Origin: a virus
Taxonomy: Duplodnaviria; Heunggongvirae; Uroviricota; Caudoviricetes
Virus record (IMG/VR): IMGVR_UViG_2657244971_000003
Direction: 5' to 3' (one strand)
DNA: 13,046 bases
Shown: piece by piece, positions 1,009 to 13,046 of the stretch
Numbering within the stretch: position 1 is the first letter of the stretch
Layout of the letters: each line of letters begins with the position of its first letter
Translations under genes and position numbers: made by a program
Notes under the pieces: model-generated
Databases searched by the model: none
The model's input: only the letters and a program-made list of their open reading frames with translations
What the model was told of the DNA's origin: nothing

Positions 1009-1083
1009 GTCCTCTTAGTTAAATGGATATAACGAGCCCCTCCTAAGGGCTAATTGCAGGTTCGATTCCTGCAGGGGACACCA
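1009..1083 (+). tRNA. argW: tRNA-Arg, anticodon CCU
   Basis: 75-nt cloverleaf read directly: acceptor GTCCTCT/AGGGGAC, anticodon stem AGCCC/GGGCT with loop CTCCTAA (anticodon CCT), T-arm GCAGG-TTCGATT-CCTGC, discriminator A and encoded CCA. A TATACT -10-like hexamer lies at 992-997. Confidence 0.9.
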
Positions 1084-1178
1084 TTTATCAGTTCGCTCCC
1101 ATCCGTACCAGTCCGCAAAATCCCCTGAATATCAAGCCTTCCGTAGATTAACAGTTCGTAATGGTTCGCGTCAGATCG

Positions 1179-1244
1179 TTGACAGCCGCACTCCATGACG
1201 GGTAAAAAGTGGATAAAATAATTTTACCCACCGGATTTTTACCC
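1179..1244 (+). promoter_or_regulatory. Putative intS promoter overlapped by a cluster of GGGTAAAA / TTTTACCC motif copies (candidate Int arm-type or RDF binding sites)
   Basis: Perfect TTGACA at 1179-1184. About 18 bp downstream is a weak -10-like TAAAAA (1203-1208) that sits inside GGGTAAAAA (1200-1208). A near copy GGATAAAAT (1211-1219) and two inverted copies TTTTACCC (1222-1229) and TTTTTACCC (1236-1244) end at the intS ATG. The same motif recurs at 9727-9747 beside the torI-like gene. Confidence 0.45.
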
Positions 1245-2393
1245 ATGCTCACCGTTAAGCAGATTGAAGCAGCAAAGCCGAAAGAAAAACCATACCGCCT
1301 ACTCGATGGTAATGGCCTGTACCTTTATGTCCCTGTGTCAGGGAAAAAGGTATGGCAGCTTCGCTACAAGATTGACGGTAAGGAGAAAATCCTGACCGTA
1401 GGAAAATATCCGCTAATGACTTTGCAGGAGGCAAGAGATAAAGCATGGACCGCGAGGAAAGACATCTCGGTTGGCATCGATCCGGTAAAAGCGAAAAAGG
1501 CTTCGTCTAACAACAATTCCTTTAGTGCCATTTACAAGGAATGGTACGAGCACAAGAAGCAAGTCTGGTCAGTAGGCTATGCAACTGAACTTGCCAAAAT
1601 GTTTGATGACGACATTTTACCCATCATCGGCGGTCTTGAGATTCAGGATATTGAGCCGATGCAACTGCTGGAAGTAATCCGCAGATTTGAAGATCGCGGT
1701 GCAATGGAGCGAGCCAACAAAGCCCGCAGAAGATGCGGCGAGGTTTTCCGTTACGCCATTGTCACTGGTAGGGCTAAATATAACCCGGCACCTGACCTTG
1801 CTGACGCCATGAAGGGATACCGCAAGAAAAACTTCCCGTTTCTTCCTGCAGACCAGATCCCGGCATTTAACAAAGCACTGGCAACATTTTCAGGAAGCAT
1901 CGTATCGCTCATTGCGACCAAAGTTTTACGCTACACAGCCCTAAGAACGAAAGAGCTTCGTTCCATGCAATGGAAGAACGTCGATTTTGAAAACAGGATT
2001 ATCACTATCGACGCCAGTGTGATGAAGGGACGCAAGATTCATGTTGTCCCGATGTCGGACCAGGTGGTTGAACTTCTCACTACGCTAAGCTCAATCACCA
2101 AACCAGTATCAGAGTTTGTTTTTGCCGGGCGCAACGATAAGAAGAAGCCAATCTGCGAGAACGCGGTGCTACTTGTGATCAAACAAATCGGCTATGAGGG
2201 TCTGGAAAGCGGTCACGGATTCAGGCATGAATTCAGCACGATTATGAACGAGCACGGCTGGCCTGCTGATGCTATAGAGGTTCAGCTAGCCCACGCGACC
2301 GGTGGATCTGTTCGCGGAATTTACAATCACGCACAGTACATGGAAAAACGCCGCGAGATGATGCAGTGGTGGGCTGATTGGGTTGATTTGTGA
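1245..2393 (+). CDS. intS: P4-family tyrosine integrase (IntS-like), 382 aa
   Basis: ATG at 1245, in frame within the tracked ORF 1209-2393 (which begins at a GTG). N-terminus MLTVKQIEAAKPKEKPYRLLDGNGLYLYV is typical of the P4-integrase arm-binding domain. C-terminal region has the tyrosine-recombinase signature (HGFRHEF ... RGIYNHAQY). Position directly downstream of argW matches the IntS arrangement. Confidence 0.85.
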   Translation: MLTVKQIEAAKPKEKPYRLLDGNGLYLYVPVSGKKVWQLRYKIDGKEKILTVGKYPLMTLQEARDKAWTARKDISVGIDPVKAKKASSNNNSFSAIYKEWYEHKKQVWSVGYATELAKMFDDDILPIIGGLEIQDIEPMQLLEVIRRFEDRGAMERANKARRRCGEVFRYAIVTGRAKYNPAPDLADAMKGYRKKNFPFLPADQIPAFNKALATFSGSIVSLIATKVLRYTALRTKELRSMQWKNVDFENRIITIDASVMKGRKIHVVPMSDQVVELLTTLSSITKPVSEFVFAGRNDKKKPICENAVLLVIKQIGYEGLESGHGFRHEFSTIMNEHGWPADAIEVQLAHATGGSVRGIYNHAQYMEKRREMMQWWADWVDL

Positions 2394-4457: not shown

Positions 4458-5381
4458 TCAGTAGTTATGTACTGAAGGAGGTAATTCTTTATTCTTAAGT
4501 CTCATCCATGCGGAAAGATTCGTTGGTCCGTCTGGCTCATTAATATCAACATCTCGTGTGTGATTGATTAAAACGTCTCTCGCCATTCCGATAACATACG
4601 AGAACTCATGACCGTAGTCGTAGCATCTGCCTGAATAGTTCGATTGAATTTGTTTTAGCGCCGGATACAGTTCGCGGAATAATGCCTGTGAGCGGTTGGC
4701 ATAATCCCATAACCATACAAGGCTGTTTGCTTCTTTTGCAGAAAGCTCGTTTGCTTTCTTCTCTTGTTTGCCGATTAACTCGCCTTCAAGCGGAACGCGA
4801 GCTGCAAGTGACAGAGCTTCGGTAAACTGCTCATCGCTGATTTCTTTGTATGAACACCCAAAATGAGATTTCAGTGACGACCACATGGTAATCATTGCCT
4901 TCGCCTGTTTTTCTTTTGGCAGAGACTGACCGCGACTCATGACGAGTTGTTTAATGGCTTCCTGCTGTTCAGTGGTGATTTTACCCGGCAACGCCTTTTT
5001 AGCTTTGCGTGGGTTAACTACATGGCCTTTAGTCCAGTAGTCGTATAGCACATCGTCACACTCTTCTTGATACTGGATTACATTGTCGCGGATTTCAGGG
5101 CGGACTTTGTTAGGGCTGATGGTTTGCAACCAGCCATTCAGTTTACGTAAAGCAAGGCAAATCATGGTCTGCACACCGCCAACTGAAGGTATTGCGATTT
5201 CCACAATTCCTTTAGCAAATCTTTGTTTTAACTTTGTAAACTGTGAAGCCCAATCCATACCCATTCCCTCAACGATAGGTTTCATTGGGGTGTACGGTTC
5301 GCCGTTGTGATTGACAACATAAAGCTCTGCGCCGTGGAATGGCACGTTGATAGTAGATACTGCTGTTGCTATACTTTTCAT
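4458..5381 (-). CDS. ant: Phage antirepressor (Ant-like), 307 aa
   Basis: N-terminus [17 protein letters not shown]...[27 protein letters not shown] resembles antirepressor N-terminal domains as I recall them. It lies between an arc-like gene and the tailspike, the P22 immI order. AGGAAT lies about 8 nt upstream of the ATG at 5381. Confidence 0.8.
5347..5375 (+). promoter_or_regulatory. Candidate promoter for a sar-like antisense RNA, inside the first codons of ant on the opposite strand
   Basis: TTGATA (5347-5352), 17-bp spacer, TATACT (5370-5375). The predicted start near 5382 is immediately antisense to the ant start codon (5379-5381). Confidence 0.4.
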
Positions 5382-5456
5382 GTCGTTAATTCCTATGCGT
5401 GGTTTTACGATACCGAAGCCCTGACTGTTCCAGCAGTTGGGGCTTCAACTTTTTTG
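5382..5456 (+). ncRNA. Putative sar-like small antisense RNA (~75 nt) complementary to the ant ribosome-binding region
   Basis: Runs from the predicted start (~5382) across the complement of the ant Shine-Dalgarno and ends at a plus-strand terminator: extended imperfect hairpin GAAGCCCTGACTG / CAGTTGGGGCTTC (5415-5446) followed by TTTTTT (5450-5455). P22 has a short Sar antisense RNA at the analogous position. Predicted from motifs only. Confidence 0.4.
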
Positions 5457-6814: not shown

Positions 6815-7042
6815 GTGAAGCGATGGTTCCTCATAATTACTGTTTTCGCGATCATTTACACTATTTTCCCTGCATTAAAAGCACCAATGCAAATAATTTC
6901 ACTAGCAATAATTTCGATTGGTGCTTTCATTGCAGTAGCCGTACTTGTGTTTAAGGTTTTAAAGTTTTTAGTTTGGCTATCAAAAGATGATGGATGCAAA
7001 GTTCATCAAGAAAAAGAAGGCAAAATAACCAAAGTTGACTAA
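6815..7042 (+). CDS. Hypothetical small inner-membrane protein with two predicted transmembrane helices, 75 aa from GTG 6815
   Basis: AAGGAGG (6803-6809) lies 5 nt upstream of the in-frame GTG at 6815; the tracked ORF begins at ATG 6791 without an RBS. Two hydrophobic segments (WFLIITVFAIIYTIF and IISLAIISIGAFIAVAVLVF). Same strand as mnt, the position where P22-like phages carry exclusion genes. Confidence 0.5.
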   Translation: MKRWFLIITVFAIIYTIFPALKAPMQIISLAIISIGAFIAVAVLVFKVLKFLVWLSKDDGCKVHQEKEGKITKVD

Positions 7043-8718
7043 CTGTCACTAGCGAGCCATGTAATAATCCCCGTGCGGGCAATGGTTTTTGCTTCATCTG
7101 TTGATAAGGTTTTCTCCCATCTCTTAAATGCCCCAGATTGCATCAGTTTCCTTTCTATTGCGCGTCTCACTTCTGCTCTGTCTACTGGTGCGTTTTGCAG
7201 GCGAAATAGCATTGATTTAAACTCAGGAGAAGATAGCAGAGCATCAGCAGCCTTTATCCTGCTTGTTTTCCCTGACATCAATGCAGACGTTATCACCCCT
7301 GTTGCACCTACACCAGGGAGACCAGATAAGCTTGTAATACCTTCCGCCGCAGCAGCTTTTGAGGCTATTCCATAAATTTTTGCGAGACTACCCTTTTCTT
7401 TCAGAAAGTTATTAACTTGCTGATCCACAAGACTACTAGCATACTGCTTACCAGTATTGAGTCTATTCATAGCCTTAGCTGCTTGATAAATCGTATCAAG
7501 GCGCTTTGATGCATCTGTGCCAATAGCATCACGGAGAGCCTTCATATTGGCCCCATTGCGTGACATTCCGTTATACCATTTTACAAATCCATCAACTCCT
7601 AATTGCTGACCAGGTGATTTGGCATAGCTGGTAAATGCTTTATTCATTGAGGTGAGCGCAACTTCCTGCCGCATATCCTTTGGAATCGACTTCATTAATT
7701 GCCTAAAGTCGCCACCGTTTCCTTTTGCCATATTAACAACAGCACTTTCAACTTTTAGAATTGCTGATTGCTGAAGTTTTCTACCCAAGACGGTTACAGC
7801 ATCATCTTCAATGGATTTTCGTTTTTTTACCAACTCCTTACCAAGCGTCCATAATTCCCCTGCGCCATATTTTTCTGCGACAGCCTGTTGGTCATCTGTT
7901 ATGGCTGCATATAACTTTTTAAGAACACCTGTTTCTTCATCCTTGAATGGACCAGAGCCTTTGCCAATAGCTTGTCCAACCTGCTTTCTAGCGAGATCTA
8001 AACGCCCATACGTTGGCAAGGTGTTTGGATCAAGTCGGTTCAATGTCCGCTTCATTATTGGAGATAATTCATCAATTCCACCTATGTCATCAGCAAAATC
8101 CTCTAAAAAATTCAATGTATTAGTTGCCTCAATCCGGTCTCTTACAGGAACCTTTTCGGCAATTTTGTTGTAGATGTTATCTGACTGATTTTGTAATGAT
8201 GAAATGGTTTTATCAAAATTATCTGCAAGCCTGTCAGAAACCAGTTGCTTATCAAGGCTTCCCCCAAATGAAGTTATCATTTCATCAGCTTTTCTTCCTA
8301 ATTCAGTAATAAAACGCTTATGCGCCTCACTAATCTCTGTTCCAGGGAGACTTGCCACTGCATTATCAAGAGCCCTGACAGCAGGATTATTAGAGATCAT
8401 GCCTGGAGTGGCATAATTTTCCAGTTCTAGCTCACGAATAGCATTTATCGCGTTAAAATCAGGATTAACTTCATCGGCGAAATCTTGAATAGCTCGTTGC
8501 CCGCCGATAAATTTATTGTCCATTGCGCCAGTAGCTTTCTTTAACGTTGCTTTAGATGATTTACTACCCATCCCTACGGATGAGCGATAAATATCTCCGG
8601 CACTATTTTTAATTTTTCCTGCAATCTTCCCAAGCGCTGGACCAACAATCTCGGCTATCCGGTAACTCCGGATGGTTGGATAAGCTGTAGTGAGCAGATG
8701 CCTTCCGCAGGGGAACAA
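7039..8718 (-). CDS. P22 gp16-family DNA ejection/injection protein, probably 5'-truncated (possible pseudogene)
   Basis: Long, alpha-helix-rich, Ala/Lys-rich product. It sits upstream of the sieA/mnt-like region, where gene 16 lies in P22. The frame is open to 8718, where the tracked ORF begins at a TTG with no RBS; the first in-frame ATG (8569-8571) has only a weak RBS. Identity is from synteny and composition, not motif recognition. Confidence 0.55.
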   Translation of the reverse strand: MFPCGRHLLTTAYPTIRSYRIAEIVGPALGKIAGKIKNSAGDIYRSSVGMGSKSSKATLKKATGAMDNKFIGGQRAIQDFADEVNPDFNAINAIRELELENYATPGMISNNPAVRALDNAVASLPGTEISEAHKRFITELGRKADEMITSFGGSLDKQLVSDRLADNFDKTISSLQNQSDNIYNKIAEKVPVRDRIEATNTLNFLEDFADDIGGIDELSPIMKRTLNRLDPNTLPTYGRLDLARKQVGQAIGKGSGPFKDEETGVLKKLYAAITDDQQAVAEKYGAGELWTLGKELVKKRKSIEDDAVTVLGRKLQQSAILKVESAVVNMAKGNGGDFRQLMKSIPKDMRQEVALTSMNKAFTSYAKSPGQQLGVDGFVKWYNGMSRNGANMKALRDAIGTDASKRLDTIYQAAKAMNRLNTGKQYASSLVDQQVNNFLKEKGSLAKIYGIASKAAAAEGITSLSGLPGVGATGVITSALMSGKTSRIKAADALLSSPEFKSMLFRLQNAPVDRAEVRRAIERKLMQSGAFKRWEKTLSTDEAKTIARTGIITWLASDS

Positions 8719-9496: not shown

Positions 9497-9512
9497 TTGC
9501 AGGTTCGATTCC
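9497..9512 (+). repeat. 16-nt direct repeat of the argW T-arm (TTGCAGGTTCGATTCC), candidate att core or att relic
   Basis: Exact 16/16 identity with 1054-1069 inside argW; flanking bases differ. The downstream sequence does not complete a T-stem, so it is not a tRNA. Confidence 0.6.
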
Positions 9513-9531: not shown

Positions 9532-9732
9532 ATGCAACACGAACTACAGCCTGATTCACTGGTTGATTTGAAATTCATCATGGCCGATACTGGCTTCGGT
9601 AAAACCTTCATCTACGACCGGATTAAGTCCGGCGACCTGCCAAAAGCCAAAGTTATCCACGGGCGAGCAAGATGGTTATATCGTGACCATTGTGAATTCA
9701 AAAATAAGCTCTTAAGCCGCGCTAATGGGTAA
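9532..9732 (+). CDS. torI: Excisionase / recombination directionality factor (TorI-like), 66 aa
   Basis: MQHELQPDSLVDLKFIMADTGFGKTFIYDRIKSGDLPKAKVIHGRARWLYRDHCEFKNKLLSRANG matches my recollection of E. coli TorI, the KplE1 excisionase. GGAGA lies about 8 nt upstream. The symbol is recalled, not searched. Confidence 0.7.
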   Translation: MQHELQPDSLVDLKFIMADTGFGKTFIYDRIKSGDLPKAKVIHGRARWLYRDHCEFKNKLLSRANG

Positions 9733-9747
9733 AATAGCGGGTAAAAT
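9727..9747 (+). promoter_or_regulatory. Tandem GGGTAAAAT motif copies near the right att site
   Basis: GGGTAAAAT at 9727-9735 and 9739-9747, overlapping the torI stop. The same motif clusters in front of intS at 1200-1244. Confidence 0.4.
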
Positions 9748-9805
9748 ATTTTTCACATCTAAAAAACACCATTCCAATCAATCCCCTGCTGCTTCAAGTA
9801 GATGT

Positions 9806-9818
9806 CTGCAGGGGACAC
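9806..9818 (+). repeat. 13-nt direct repeat of the argW 3' end (CTGCAGGGGACAC), candidate attR core of element A and relic attL of element B
   Basis: Exact 13/13 identity with 1069-1081. An 8-bp inverted partner TCCCCTGC sits at 9782-9789. Together with the 16-nt repeat it reconstitutes the argW 3' half (1054-1081), interrupted by about 293 bp that carry torI. Confidence 0.55.
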
Positions 9819-9932
9819 TTTAAAGACCTTTCTCTACATTTCACTTCATTACATAACCACTTAACAAAACAGTAAGTTATCACCGAATCGGCCTGATTTT
9901 CATTTCAGTTAATTTCATGACATTACAACCTC

Positions 9933-9981
9933 GTGATGGTATAAGTGATGGTATTCCCCAGTTCGATATGCAGATACCATC
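9933..9981. promoter_or_regulatory. Repeat cluster upstream of the second integrase (candidate arm-type or operator sites)
   Basis: Tandem direct 10-mers GTGATGGTAT at 9933-9942 and 9945-9954, plus an inverted copy ATACCATC at 9974-9981. Confidence 0.4.
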
Positions 9982-10004
9982 AATTTACCAAAATGAGTAC
10001 AGAT

Positions 10005-11279
10005 ATGGCCATTAATGTGCTTTCCCCCAAACAGATAGAAAACGCCAAGCCGAAGACCAATGATTACAAACTTACCGATGGAGGGAGTTTGTATCTACTG
10101 GTACGAAAGACTGGTGGAAAATACTGGCGTATGAATTATCGTTTTGATGGAAAACAAGTGACATTGGCATTAGGGGTCTACCCAGATGTCTCACTTGCAA
10201 CAGCGCGGAAACGGCGTGATGAAGCCAGGCAACTACTAGCCGATGGTCGTGATCCTCGCGAAGCAAAGAAACCCAAAAAGGAAGACCCAATTTCCCCCAC
10301 GTTCGAGAGTGTTGCCAGAGAGTGGCATAGTGGAACGATGGGGCATCCTGAGTGGAAAGAGATCACCCGTAAAAAAATTCTCCGAGAAATGGAAAACCAC
10401 CTCTTTCCTGCCATCGGTTCAAAGCCTATCGATACGCTCAAAACCCGTGACTTGATGCCGATGCTGGTTGAGATGACTGAGAAAGGAATTGGTGCCACAA
10501 CGAGCCGTGTAAAAACCACTATGACGAGCATCTTCCGTTATGCCGTGCAACGTGGAATTGTCGATTACAACCCTGCCCACGATCTAAAAGGTGCAATTAC
10601 GGCCCCCAAAGTACGACATCGCCCCGCACTACCTCTCGAACGTTTACCTGAACTGTTAGCGAAAACGAGAAGTTACACGGGAAGACCATTGACTCGCCTA
10701 GCAGTTCTCTTTTCCCTGCACACTTTTGTGCGATCCAGCGAACTACGACATGCCAGATGGGAGGAGATCGACATTGAAAATGGGCTATGGACGATACCAG
10801 GACAACGTGAAGAGATCGCAGGGGTTAAATTCTCAGATCGGGGTGCAAAGATGGGGGCTGCTCATTATGTCCCGCTATCTAGTCAGGCTATCGGGGTACT
10901 GGAGGATATAAGGAAAATCAGTGGTGAATATCTGCTGGTTTTTCCCGGTGACAGCAACCCATATAAACCGATGAGCGAAAACACAGTTAATAAAGCACTG
11001 CGAACGATGGGTTACGACACTCAAACTGATGTTTGCTTGCATGGGTTCAGGGCGATGGCCTGCTCTGCACTGACCGAATCAGGACTCTGGTCACGCGATG
11101 CAGTTGAACGGCAGATGAGTCACCAAGAAAGAAACGAAGTGCGGGCAGCATATGTGCATCTTGCGCAGCACATGCAGGAACGCCGCAGAATGATGCAATG
11201 GTGGTCTAATTATCTGGAACTAAATAAGGACGAATTCCATGCTCCTTATGACTTATCAGGTATTAACATTATCAATTAA
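10005..11279 (+). CDS. P4-family tyrosine integrase, about 424 aa
   Basis: N-terminus MAINVLSPKQIENAKPKTNDYKLTDGGSLYLLVRKTGGKYWRMNYRFDGKQ is the P4-integrase arm-binding domain pattern. Catalytic region has HGFRAMACS and RAAYVH. The start could instead be ATG 9993; the tracked ORF begins at GTG 9945 inside the repeat cluster. Confidence 0.8.
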   Translation: MAINVLSPKQIENAKPKTNDYKLTDGGSLYLLVRKTGGKYWRMNYRFDGKQVTLALGVYPDVSLATARKRRDEARQLLADGRDPREAKKPKKEDPISPTFESVAREWHSGTMGHPEWKEITRKKILREMENHLFPAIGSKPIDTLKTRDLMPMLVEMTEKGIGATTSRVKTTMTSIFRYAVQRGIVDYNPAHDLKGAITAPKVRHRPALPLERLPELLAKTRSYTGRPLTRLAVLFSLHTFVRSSELRHARWEEIDIENGLWTIPGQREEIAGVKFSDRGAKMGAAHYVPLSSQAIGVLEDIRKISGEYLLVFPGDSNPYKPMSENTVNKALRTMGYDTQTDVCLHGFRAMACSALTESGLWSRDAVERQMSHQERNEVRAAYVHLAQHMQERRRMMQWWSNYLELNKDEFHAPYDLSGINIIN

Positions 11280-11292
11280 ATACTCTTATAAT
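11263..11292 (+). promoter_or_regulatory. Candidate sigma70 promoter for the 293-aa orphan gene
   Basis: TTAACA (11263-11268), 18-bp spacer, perfect TATAAT (11287-11292). AGAGG RBS at 11300-11304. Confidence 0.45.
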
Positions 11293-11309
11293 TTAAAACA
11301 GAGGTCATA

Positions 11310-12191
11310 ATGCAGCATTCAACAGAGAATGAAACTATATTCTTAGGAAATCTATGGATTGACAAAAAAATACCACCATTAGAATATTGTTCATTTGAAC
11401 GCGCTTCAAGACTATTAGAATGCGAGATTGATGATTTATTACATCTATACGAAATAGGCGCTTTTAATATCGCATTCAAGGCGAATGGACTTGCAGTTAG
11501 ATTTAATGTTAATTTCCTCAATAAAAATCAGAAAATGGAAATTGACTTAATTCATCCCGTATTAACTAATCAATCACTAGAGATGGAATTTTCAACAATA
11601 TGGTATGACCTTAAAGATGATTCCTTTGAACATTTTGAAAATGGGCTTCAAATTATAGGATTTGCCTGTGGTATTTGGTACGCCGATGATATGATAAGTG
11701 ACATAAAAAATGGATTAGCTATAGATCCAGATTATGAATTCAGGCTTAAACCGGTAAAAATACGAGATAATGTTTTGATGGCAACGGCCTCATATGAAGG
11801 AAATAAGGTCATTGAGATTCCATTTGAAGATCTTCTTATCATGCGAAGAGATTTAGAGTTAATATGGAAATCAGTAAAAACTGGAATTCCTATGCCAAGT
11901 TTACTTACGAAAAGAATTTCATCTGAACCTAAAATCCCCAAGCGATTAAATAACACTGCTGAGCATCATGCAAAAAATAGGGAGGGGTTATTAAATGCAG
12001 CCATATATATATTAGCAAAATACCCAAGCGAATGTCGTGGTGAAAGAAAAGAGATAAGTCCTGAAAAGTGGACTAACGCCATAATTAAACATTTAGGAGA
12101 GCTACCTCCAATATTTATCACTAATGAACAAGAAATCTTAAGAAAATTACGATTAGCGGTTAATCATGCGGGATTAAAACAAAAGGGGTAG
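11310..12191 (+). CDS. Hypothetical 293-aa protein, strongly AT-rich, no recognisable domain; candidate accessory cargo
   Basis: Long ORF with a good RBS and its own promoter. It is visibly more AT-rich than the flanking integrase and alpA-like genes (judged by eye, not computed). I found no Walker A, clear nuclease or HTH signature by eye. Confidence 0.65.
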   Translation: MQHSTENETIFLGNLWIDKKIPPLEYCSFERASRLLECEIDDLLHLYEIGAFNIAFKANGLAVRFNVNFLNKNQKMEIDLIHPVLTNQSLEMEFSTIWYDLKDDSFEHFENGLQIIGFACGIWYADDMISDIKNGLAIDPDYEFRLKPVKIRDNVLMATASYEGNKVIEIPFEDLLIMRRDLELIWKSVKTGIPMPSLLTKRISSEPKIPKRLNNTAEHHAKNREGLLNAAIYILAKYPSECRGERKEISPEKWTNAIIKHLGELPPIFITNEQEILRKLRLAVNHAGLKQKG

Positions 12192-12293
12192 ACTGAAACA
12201 ATCTACAGGTAGAGTTGATTACACTACCTTCACAGCATTTTGATATCCCCATAGTATCTGCCGTGTTCATTACATAATACGGCAGGTAATTTC

Positions 12294-12509
12294 ATGACAT
12301 TAAAAACTTATCCTATCACTGGACATGCCCGCCCACGAGCTACTGCTGACTTTTTGCAAATAAGTACGGTTACTCTCTGGCGCTGGGAAAAGAACAATCC
12401 TGAATTTCCCAAATCTATACGCATTTCAAAACGGGTATCTGTTTACGATGCACAAGAAATTAGGCAGTGGGTTAAAGCTCAATCAGCAGGATTGGAGGAA
12501 GTAGTGTAA
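12294..12509 (+). CDS. AlpA-family phage regulatory protein / excisionase-like HTH protein, 71 aa
   Basis: ISTVTLWRWEKNNPEFPKSIRISKRVSVYDAQEIRQWV fits the AlpA/Xis-like winged-helix pattern. A hairpin CTGCCGT...ACGGCAG (12258-12285) lies just upstream. Confidence 0.65.
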   Translation: MTLKTYPITGHARPRATADFLQISTVTLWRWEKNNPEFPKSIRISKRVSVYDAQEIRQWVKAQSAGLEEVV

Positions 12510-12558
12510 TGACAATATTAACAAAGCTGGGGAGAAAAAAGCCTCCCCAACGTATTAA

Positions 12559-12753
12559 TCAATTCTTTGGTTCTAAACCTCGGCTTTGTAACTCTTTGCG
12601 TAGAATGCGCTTGATCCAAGCCGCTAGCGATTCATCGCCATCCTGCTGTTGTGCTTGTTCCATCAGTTCACGCAGTTCAGGGTCAAGTCGGAACTGGAAT
12701 GGCGGATTCCCACGTCTTTCATTTTTGTGTGTTGACACGTCAATTACACCCAT
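12559..12753 (-). CDS. Hypothetical small DNA-binding protein, possibly ribbon-helix-helix, 64 aa
   Basis: FQFRLDPELRELMEQA...SLAAWIKRILRKEL has a strand-helix-helix-like pattern. No clear RBS. It is divergent from the Icd-like ORF across an inverted-repeat region. Confidence 0.4.
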   Translation of the reverse strand: MGVIDVSTHKNERRGNPPFQFRLDPELRELMEQAQQQDGDESLAAWIKRILRKELQSRGLEPKN

Positions 12754-12766
12754 TGTAATGTATTTA

Positions 12767-12787
12767 TGTGTAATGACACATTACACA
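12767..12787. promoter_or_regulatory. Inverted repeat TGTGTAATG-ACA-CATTACACA, candidate operator
   Basis: 9-bp arms are perfect reverse complements with a 3-bp spacer. Related ATTACA/TGTAAT motifs occur at about 12741-12760, 12215-12222 and 12268-12275. Confidence 0.4.
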
Positions 12788-12869
12788 CAGAAAAACAAAA
12801 TAGCAACGCCCCGGAGTGTTTGCAGCAGCACCGAGGCGTCTGACCAGCACGTTATATGAGGTAACGAAG

Positions 12870-13046
12870 ATGGCTAAACAGAAGTGTACCTGGTTATTTG
12901 CGGCGATCAACCGCAGTCAACGCAATGCCCGTCCTGTGATGTTAAGGATCACCGCTGATAACGAACGATCAGCGCGGCGCAGACTTGCCCCGGACTATGT
13001 ACTGAGCTTTGCCGGGCGCATTCCCTGCGGAGGTGAACATGCGTAA
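12870..13046 (+). CDS. Small Icd-like protein (tentative), 58 aa
   Basis: ATG 12870 with GAGGT 7 nt upstream; the tracked ORF begins further upstream at 12816. MAKQKCTWLFAAINRSQRNARPVMLRITADNERSARRRLAPDYVLSFAGRIPC resembles my recollection of Icd-like small proteins in P4-family islands. The functional label is weak. Confidence 0.45.
   Translation: MAKQKCTWLFAAINRSQRNARPVMLRITADNERSARRRLAPDYVLSFAGRIPCGGEHA

Follow-up and report, generated by a model that had tools for sequence, protein, structure and literature searches.

A word repeated at both ends of an argW-integrated P22-like prophage remnant very probably marks the arm-type sites of the integrase IntS

A short word, GGGTAAAA, is repeated in front of the integrase gene intS and again next to torI, at the opposite end of a prophage-like element in a Caudoviricetes record of 13,046 nucleotides (IMGVR_UViG_2657244971_000003; this whole stretch of DNA is called the window below). 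Such a layout raises the question of which protein, if any, reads the word: the integrase IntS, the recombination directionality factor (RDF) TorI, or neither. On the sequence evidence presented here, the copies are very probably the arm-type binding sites of IntS, belonging to a recombination module of the KplE1/HK620/Sf6 type.

The element is a P22-like prophage remnant flanked by two copies of a core (1069-1084 and 9806-9818), with the following landmarks.

1-933: yfdC
1009-1083 (+): argW, tRNA-Arg(CCU), the integration target (ARAGORN; Rfam tRNA)
1069-1084 (+): attL core CTGCAGGGGACACCAT at the argW 3' end, with the IntS core-type site and crossover region
1245-2393 (+): intS, a P4-family tyrosine integrase of 382 aa
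2399-4357 (-): tailspike gene
4458-5381 (-): antirepressor gene (ant)
5383-5450 (+): sar antisense RNA of P22 immI, adjoining the antirepressor gene (Rfam, 81 bits)
9532-9732 (+): torI, the recombination directionality factor, 66 aa
9806-9818 (+): attR core CTGCAGGGGACAC, 13 of the 16 nt, then TTT instead of the CAT of K-12

The match to sar RNA confirms a P22-like immI/tailspike remnant as the cargo. An earlier note on this DNA drew on the biology of KplE1; the element is not KplE1 (CPS-53) itself, because the cargo, with tailspike, ant and sar RNA, differs from the yfd genes found in K-12, but a different P22-like remnant equipped with the same recombination module. Among complete E. coli genomes none contains 80% or more of the window, and none contains more than about half of it in one place; a search of genome contigs with 50 nt across the intS/tailspike junction gave no exact match. 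Two open reading frames, at 7039-8718 (-) (559 aa) and 11310-12191 (+) (293 aa), have no Pfam match. The attL core is identical to that of K-12, is annotated as the attP core in HK620 and comprises the same 16 nt as the published KplE1 core (PMC2951348). The attR core is only 13 nt long because its right flank (9819-9821) is not chromosome but the start of a P4-like satellite, whereas in K-12 the core is adjoined by dsdC.

Within the window GGGTAAAA occurs exactly seven times against 0.49 expected, a number reached in none of 200 shuffles. Three exact copies lie at attL (1200-1207 on the plus strand, 1222-1229 and 1237-1244 on the minus strand), together with a near-copy, GGATAAAA, that has one mismatch (1211-1218, plus strand); two more form a tandem pair at attR (9727-9734 and 9739-9746, both on the plus strand). 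An independent repeat search recovered the same direct and inverted pairs. The positions and the shuffles thus agree with the earlier description of four copies, one direct, one near-direct and two inverted, in the 45 bp before the intS ATG, the last of which (1237-1244) abuts the ATG at 1245. It could be argued that these are chance occurrences in an AT-rich promoter, or mere -10-like hexamers (TAAAAT) with no protein-specific role, as the region is indeed AT-rich, each copy includes a -10-like TAAAA(A/T), and one of them truly is the -10 box. However, at least four copies with at most one mismatch per 45 bp were found in none of 2000 dinucleotide shuffles of the whole window, and dinucleotide shuffling of the surrounding AT-rich 60 bp (1185-1244) gave four copies just once in 5000 trials. 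The inverted copies and those at attR are moreover not placed as promoters, and we consider this reading, which is weighed again against the related phages below, highly improbable.

The remaining two exact copies, both on the minus strand and outside both clusters, were left out of the arm-site system. That at 4979-4986 has no partner copy. That at 1615-1622 lies 370 bp into intS, and the equivalent spot of HK620 is annotated as an attP repeat, mismatched there; the copy is present in Sf6, mutated in HK620 and missing in the relatives from Klebsiella, Erwinia and Salmonella. P4 likewise has an annotated arm repeat inside its int gene. A function for the intS-internal copy is doubtful.

The identity of the sites was approached through E. 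coli K-12, drawing on PMC2951348, PMC3509656 and coordinate mapping. The ends of the published clone, -223/+64, correspond to 2464344-2464630 and therefore place the intS ATG at 2464567; with this ATG at window position 1245, published coordinates are converted to the window by subtracting 2463322. Window positions 1171-1260 are 100% identical to the KplE1/CPS-53 attL of K-12 MG1655, and the upstream part of attL differs by four spacer substitutions, all between TorI pentamers. TorI is 100% identical to its K-12 counterpart and IntS 98% identical, with residues 1-240 identical. The N-terminal part of IntS is an Arm-DNA-bind_3 domain (PF13356, residues 2-86, E = 2e-25 in Pfam), followed by the central and catalytic domains. 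TorI itself has no Pfam match at the default threshold, and its identity was established from the K-12 protein and a match to PDB 1Z4H. Since the DNA, TorI and the arm-binding domain of IntS are identical, the binding specificities measured in K-12 should transfer directly. The Panis papers of 2007 (JBC) and 2010 (Virology) reportedly mapped the sites by footprinting and mutagenesis.

In K-12 the intS promoter (PintS) lies inside attL, with -35 TTGACA and -10 TAaAAa (Panis et al., PLoS Genet 2010, PMC2951348), and transcription was mapped by primer extension to two starts, 2464536 (T) and 2464537 (A), 30/31 nt upstream of the ATG (PMC2951348). The same study described four IntS arm-type sites in attL, P'1 to P'4, all containing TAAA (PMC2951348). 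Mapped from the published coordinates, PintS in the window consists of TTGACA at 1179-1184, an 18-nt spacer, the -10 box TAAAAA at 1203-1208 and starts at T1214/A1215, and words containing TAAA in either orientation occur between the -35 box and the intS ATG exactly four times, at 1200, 1211, 1222 and 1237. The features of this segment are read as follows.

1179-1184 (+): -35 box TTGACA of PintS (PMC2951348)
1200-1207 (+): IntS arm-type site P'1, GGGTAAAA, containing the -10 box TAAAAA at 1203-1208 (PMC2951348; K-12 identity)
1211-1218 (+): probable IntS arm-type site P'2, GGATAAAA, covering the starts T1214/A1215 (numbered from its order)
1222-1229 (-): probable IntS arm-type site P'3, inverted (TTTTACCC on the plus strand), in the 5' leader
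1237-1244 (-): probable IntS arm-type site P'4, inverted, abutting the intS ATG

A scan for consensus sigma-70 promoters proposed ATGACG/AATAAT (1195-1222) instead; this candidate was rejected, as it conflicts with the primer-extension data and has no experimental support.

On DNA identical to that of K-12, the repeated words fall on the published IntS P' sites. One copy had been said to lie over a predicted -10 box, and the -10 of the experimentally supported promoter does overlap the GGGTAAAA copy at 1200-1207. In K-12 the mutation of TAAA in P'1, which overlaps the -10 box, kills the promoter, and repression stays intact after single mutations of P'2, P'3 or P'4 (PMC2951348). As P'1 could not be dissected from the -10 box, its role as the operator is a deduction of the authors of that study rather than a direct demonstration. 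Repression of PintS by IntS is about 5-fold, rising to as much as 15-fold in exponential phase (PMC2951348), in line with the earlier proposal that the integrase represses its own gene.

The same proposal left it open whether the integrase, the RDF or both bind the motif. That TorI, alone or with IntS, occupies the GGGTAAAA copies and so contacts both att arms would accord with the facts that TorI represses intS and binds attL, and the layout alone cannot tell TorI from IntS. The published TorI sites are, however, of another kind. Five sites of sequence GTTCG, GATCG or GTCCG were found in two blocks, 2464409-2464436 and 2464472-2464499 (PMC2951348), which map to window positions 1087-1114 and 1150-1177, and the pentamers are found at 1091, 1111, 1154, 1164 and 1174.

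1091-1115 (+): TorI sites I1 (GTTCG, 1091-1095) and I2 (GTCCG, 1111-1115), dispensable for repression
1154-1178 (+): TorI sites I3 (GTTCG, 1154-1158), I4 (GTTCG, 1164-1168) and I5 (GATCG, 1174-1178)

Together they span 1091-1178, upstream of the -35 box and abutting it. Repression by TorI needs I4 and I5, which adjoin the -35 box, and is abolished by mutating either of them (PMC2951348). GGGTAAAA contains no TorI pentamer, and reading the sequence directly from the end of torI to the attR core (9733-9805) revealed no GTTCG, GATCG or GTCCG. As the TorI sites differ from the repeated word in both sequence and place, the word shared by the two ends is a feature of the integrase and not of the RDF, and TorI binding to it is very unlikely. 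Thus, of the earlier proposal, binding by the integrase stands, and binding by the RDF does not: TorI uses its own pentamers at 1091-1178 and represses through I4/I5 rather than through GGGTAAAA.

At the other end of the element the following features were located.

9727-9734 (+): putative IntS arm-type site P1 on attR, GGGTAAAA, including the stop codon of torI
9739-9746 (+): putative IntS arm-type site P2 on attR, GGGTAAAA, 12 bp after P1
9776-9788 (+): IHF-like site AATCAATCCCCTG, with one mismatch to WATCAANNNNTTR, between P2 and the core

The two tandem copies had been described as sitting just after torI and ending at 9747; the pair is real, yet TAA, the stop codon of torI (9730-9732), lies inside the first copy, and the second ends at 9746. 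Both are identical in K-12 and carry the attP repeat annotation in HK620. We take them to be the sites reportedly named P1 and P2 (Panis 2007). According to the literature on K-12, the 135-bp attR substrate that is functional in in vitro excision begins at the primer CTCTTAAGCCGCGCCAATGG (ending ...CCAATGG), located immediately before the first attR copy or overlapping it. The IHF-like block AATCAATCCCCTG is conserved across the relatives. A single functional IHF site is said to be present on attR (Panis 2010, Virology), and the block at 9776-9788 is a plausible candidate for it. The numbering of the individual P' copies, the assignment of P1 and P2 on attR and the position of the IHF site are thus what we infer for this element, whereas the promoter, the start site, the four P' sites, repression by IntS and TorI and the TorI site sequences were shown in K-12 and would hold here by virtue of identity.

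Two further repeats were noticed in this region. The octamers TCCCCTGC (9782-9789) and GCAGGGGA (9808-9815), 18 nt apart, form a perfect 8-nt inverted repeat spanning the attR core; its left arm (9782-9789) overlaps the IHF-like block, is conserved in relatives and could be a second IntS core-type half-site. In addition, a 16-nt stretch of the argW T-arm, TTGCAGGTTCGATTCC, is copied exactly at 9497-9512, 20 bp upstream of the torI ATG. The original (1054-1069) lies just 5' of the att core and overlaps it by one base. A 16-mer match of this kind is very unlikely to be due to chance; the HK620 record annotates the spot of 9497-9512 as the cII-activated pI promoter, and the copy could be what is left of an older attachment site, or else functional mimicry.

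The attP regions of nine related phages were aligned, namely those of HK620, Sf6, Klebsiella phages Chronis and RCIP0114, Erwinia phages Midgardsormr38, vB_EhrS_49 and phiEt88, and Salmonella phages Emek and g341c, whose integrases share 98% to 60% identity with IntS. In all nine regions the six arm sites keep their offsets from the int ATG, -255, -243, -45, -34, -22 (inverted) and -7 (inverted), with a shift of 2 in the phages of the GGGCATA type, so that P'4 is found at -7 in the GGGTAAA-type relatives and at -9 in the GGGCATA type. P'3, which is also annotated as a repeat_region of the HK620 attP, keeps its position at -22, being degenerate or weak in the Salmonella pair Emek and g341c. Within the GGGTAAA-type group pairwise identity is 92.5% in the arm columns and 66% in the other non-coding columns (permutation p = 5e-5), and the TorI pentamers reach 92.5% in the same group. 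The -35 box is invariantly TTGACA in the six GGGTAAA-type sequences and TTGACT in the three GGGCATA-type phages.

Both arms of phiEt88, Emek and g341c carry the GGGCATA-type word at all their sites, with GGGCACA at P'2, and the overlap with the -10 box is retained (TTGACT, 18 nt, CATATT inside the first P' site). Such a concerted switch of the word is what a single protein reading all the sites would produce. It stands against the reading of the copies as chance products or -10-like hexamers, as do the constant positions of the sites among the relatives and the finding that GGG is conserved as well as TAAA. In phiEt88 the RDF word has also changed, to a GTAAC type, independently of the GGGCATA arm word; this indicates that the arm and RDF sites are separate classes and argues further against TorI as the protein that reads the arm word, the two words being different and each of them changed. 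A scan of viral contigs with an integrase alignment returned only loci 99-100% identical and thus no divergence, and served for a count of polymorphisms. Among 29 attL haplotypes (40 viral contigs) 34 positions are polymorphic, none of them in the P' sites, and 1196-1247 is invariant. A query comprising argW, attL and most of intS (900-2500) is present over at least 80% of its length in 1862 of 5426 complete E. coli genomes.

Alternatively, the inverted copies might fold into a hairpin in the RNA of the intS leader and thereby control translation or termination; P'1 is the complement of both P'3 and P'4, the latter of which lies directly against the ATG. The complementary arm is nevertheless missing from the mRNA, because transcription starts at 1214/1215, downstream of P'1. 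The leader (1214-1275) folds at -3.4 kcal/mol (z = +0.91), no better than its shuffles; the relatives keep the sequence of each copy, and a hairpin leaves the direct repeats at attR unexplained. The probability of this explanation is accordingly close to negligible.

Arm-type sites for IntS also agree with what is known of related systems. The system of words at attL and attR is real, functional and already known, and the published K-12 model carries over unchanged to the many E. coli prophages with this module. KplE1 shares DNA identical from the -35 box through the ATG, the attR repeats, TorI, the arm-binding domain of IntS and the argW target. The Lederbergvirus phages HK620, Sf6 and CUS-3 have the same module in their attP, with 98% identity, and the GenBank record of HK620 (2001) already marks TGGGTAAAATAGCGGGTAAAATA, CGGGTAAAAAGTGGATAAAATA and AATTTTACCCACCGGATTTTTACCCA as attP repeats, together with the int promoter; in these phages the arms are contiguous as attP, whereas here they are split into the prophage attL and attR. 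Phage P4, the prototype of the family, has an integrase 34% identical and with an Arm-DNA-bind_3 domain, and its annotated attP comprises two direct repeats, 53 bp, the core at a tRNA 3' end, 112 bp and two direct repeats, followed by one inverted repeat over the int ATG and one repeat inside int. The corresponding spacings of IntS, 59 and 115 bp against 53 and 112 bp, reveal the attP architecture of the P4 family. P4 differs in its arm word (GGGGGCAT), its tRNA target and in having one inverted copy, compared with two for IntS. Double repression by integrase and RDF has been discussed for Int and Vis of P4 as a parallel case (PMC2951348); Vis was proposed to act on mRNA, however, and TorI acts on DNA (PMC2951348). 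The Int protein of phage lambda, with sites P1, P2 and P'1 to P'3, is also a heterobivalent integrase that bridges arm and core sites with the help of an RDF and IHF. In lambda, by contrast, int is not transcribed from within att and there is no autoregulation via arm sites, the RDF binds on the opposite arm, and the number and orientation of sites differ.

As a heterobivalent P4-family tyrosine recombinase, IntS would dock through its N-terminal Arm-DNA-bind_3 domain on P1 and P2 of attR and on P'1 to P'4 of attL, and its catalytic domain would hold the CTGCAGGGGACAC core at the argW 3' end. This bridging of arm and core would assemble an intasome leading to excision or integration; in the excisive intasome, which would be bridged in this way, TorI would bend attL at the GTTCG-type sites and IHF would bend attR. 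Because intS is read outward from attL, its only promoter in the prophage state lies among the P' sites, and these would therefore double as operators. P'1 would cover the -10 box, P'2 the start site, and the two inverted sites, P'3 and P'4, the 30-nt leader that ends at the ATG. By occupying these sites, IntS would exclude RNA polymerase and thus exert negative autoregulation. TorI would provide a second, separate repression via I4/I5 abutting the -35 box.

A P4-like satellite is tandemly integrated directly after the IntS attR core (window 9819-13046).

9993/10005-11279: satellite integrase, 52% identical to P4 Int
9933-9942, 9945-9954, 9974-9982: satellite repeats

These repeats occur in a layout like that of IntS, with GTGATGGTAT twice in direct orientation and an inverted ATACCATCA just before the integrase ATG. 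Since the satellite follows the IntS attR core directly and has its own set of repeats, the IntS attR is also the satellite attL. The junction of torI and the satellite is present in at least 63 complete E. coli genomes. In E. coli Z1322HEC0003 homologues of AlpA, an Icd-like protein, primase, Psu and Delta follow the satellite integrase, and the far end of the satellite (L092 23626-23720) contains GATGGTAT/GATGGTAC in tandem at a spacing of 12 bp; a degenerate core, CTGCAGGGACACCA, follows about 55 bp further on.

The main value of these results is a correct annotation of the att arms, the intS promoter and the operators of this argW-integrated element, with the integrase sites separated from those of the RDF. 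The additions to known biology are modest, namely the tandem satellite and the rule that, across the family, the geometry stays fixed while the word can be swapped. As a tentative idea, which we regard as possible but rather unlikely, the arm word of the IntS/P4 family (GGGTAAA, GGGCATA, GGGGGCAT or GATGGTAT) may be swapped as a set within a rigid geometry that includes the overlap of P' and the -10 box, and the IntS attR (P1, P2, the IHF site and the core), fused directly to the attL and integrase promoter of the satellite, could let the two elements cross-regulate each other or co-excise via the shared core. If the first of these held, autoregulation of the integrase would be a selected design rule rather than a by-product. 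With a fixed geometry and a swappable word, the arm sites of P4-type integrases and their autoregulated promoters would be predictable from sequence alone, and the geometry rule, when applied to the neighbouring satellite, worked.
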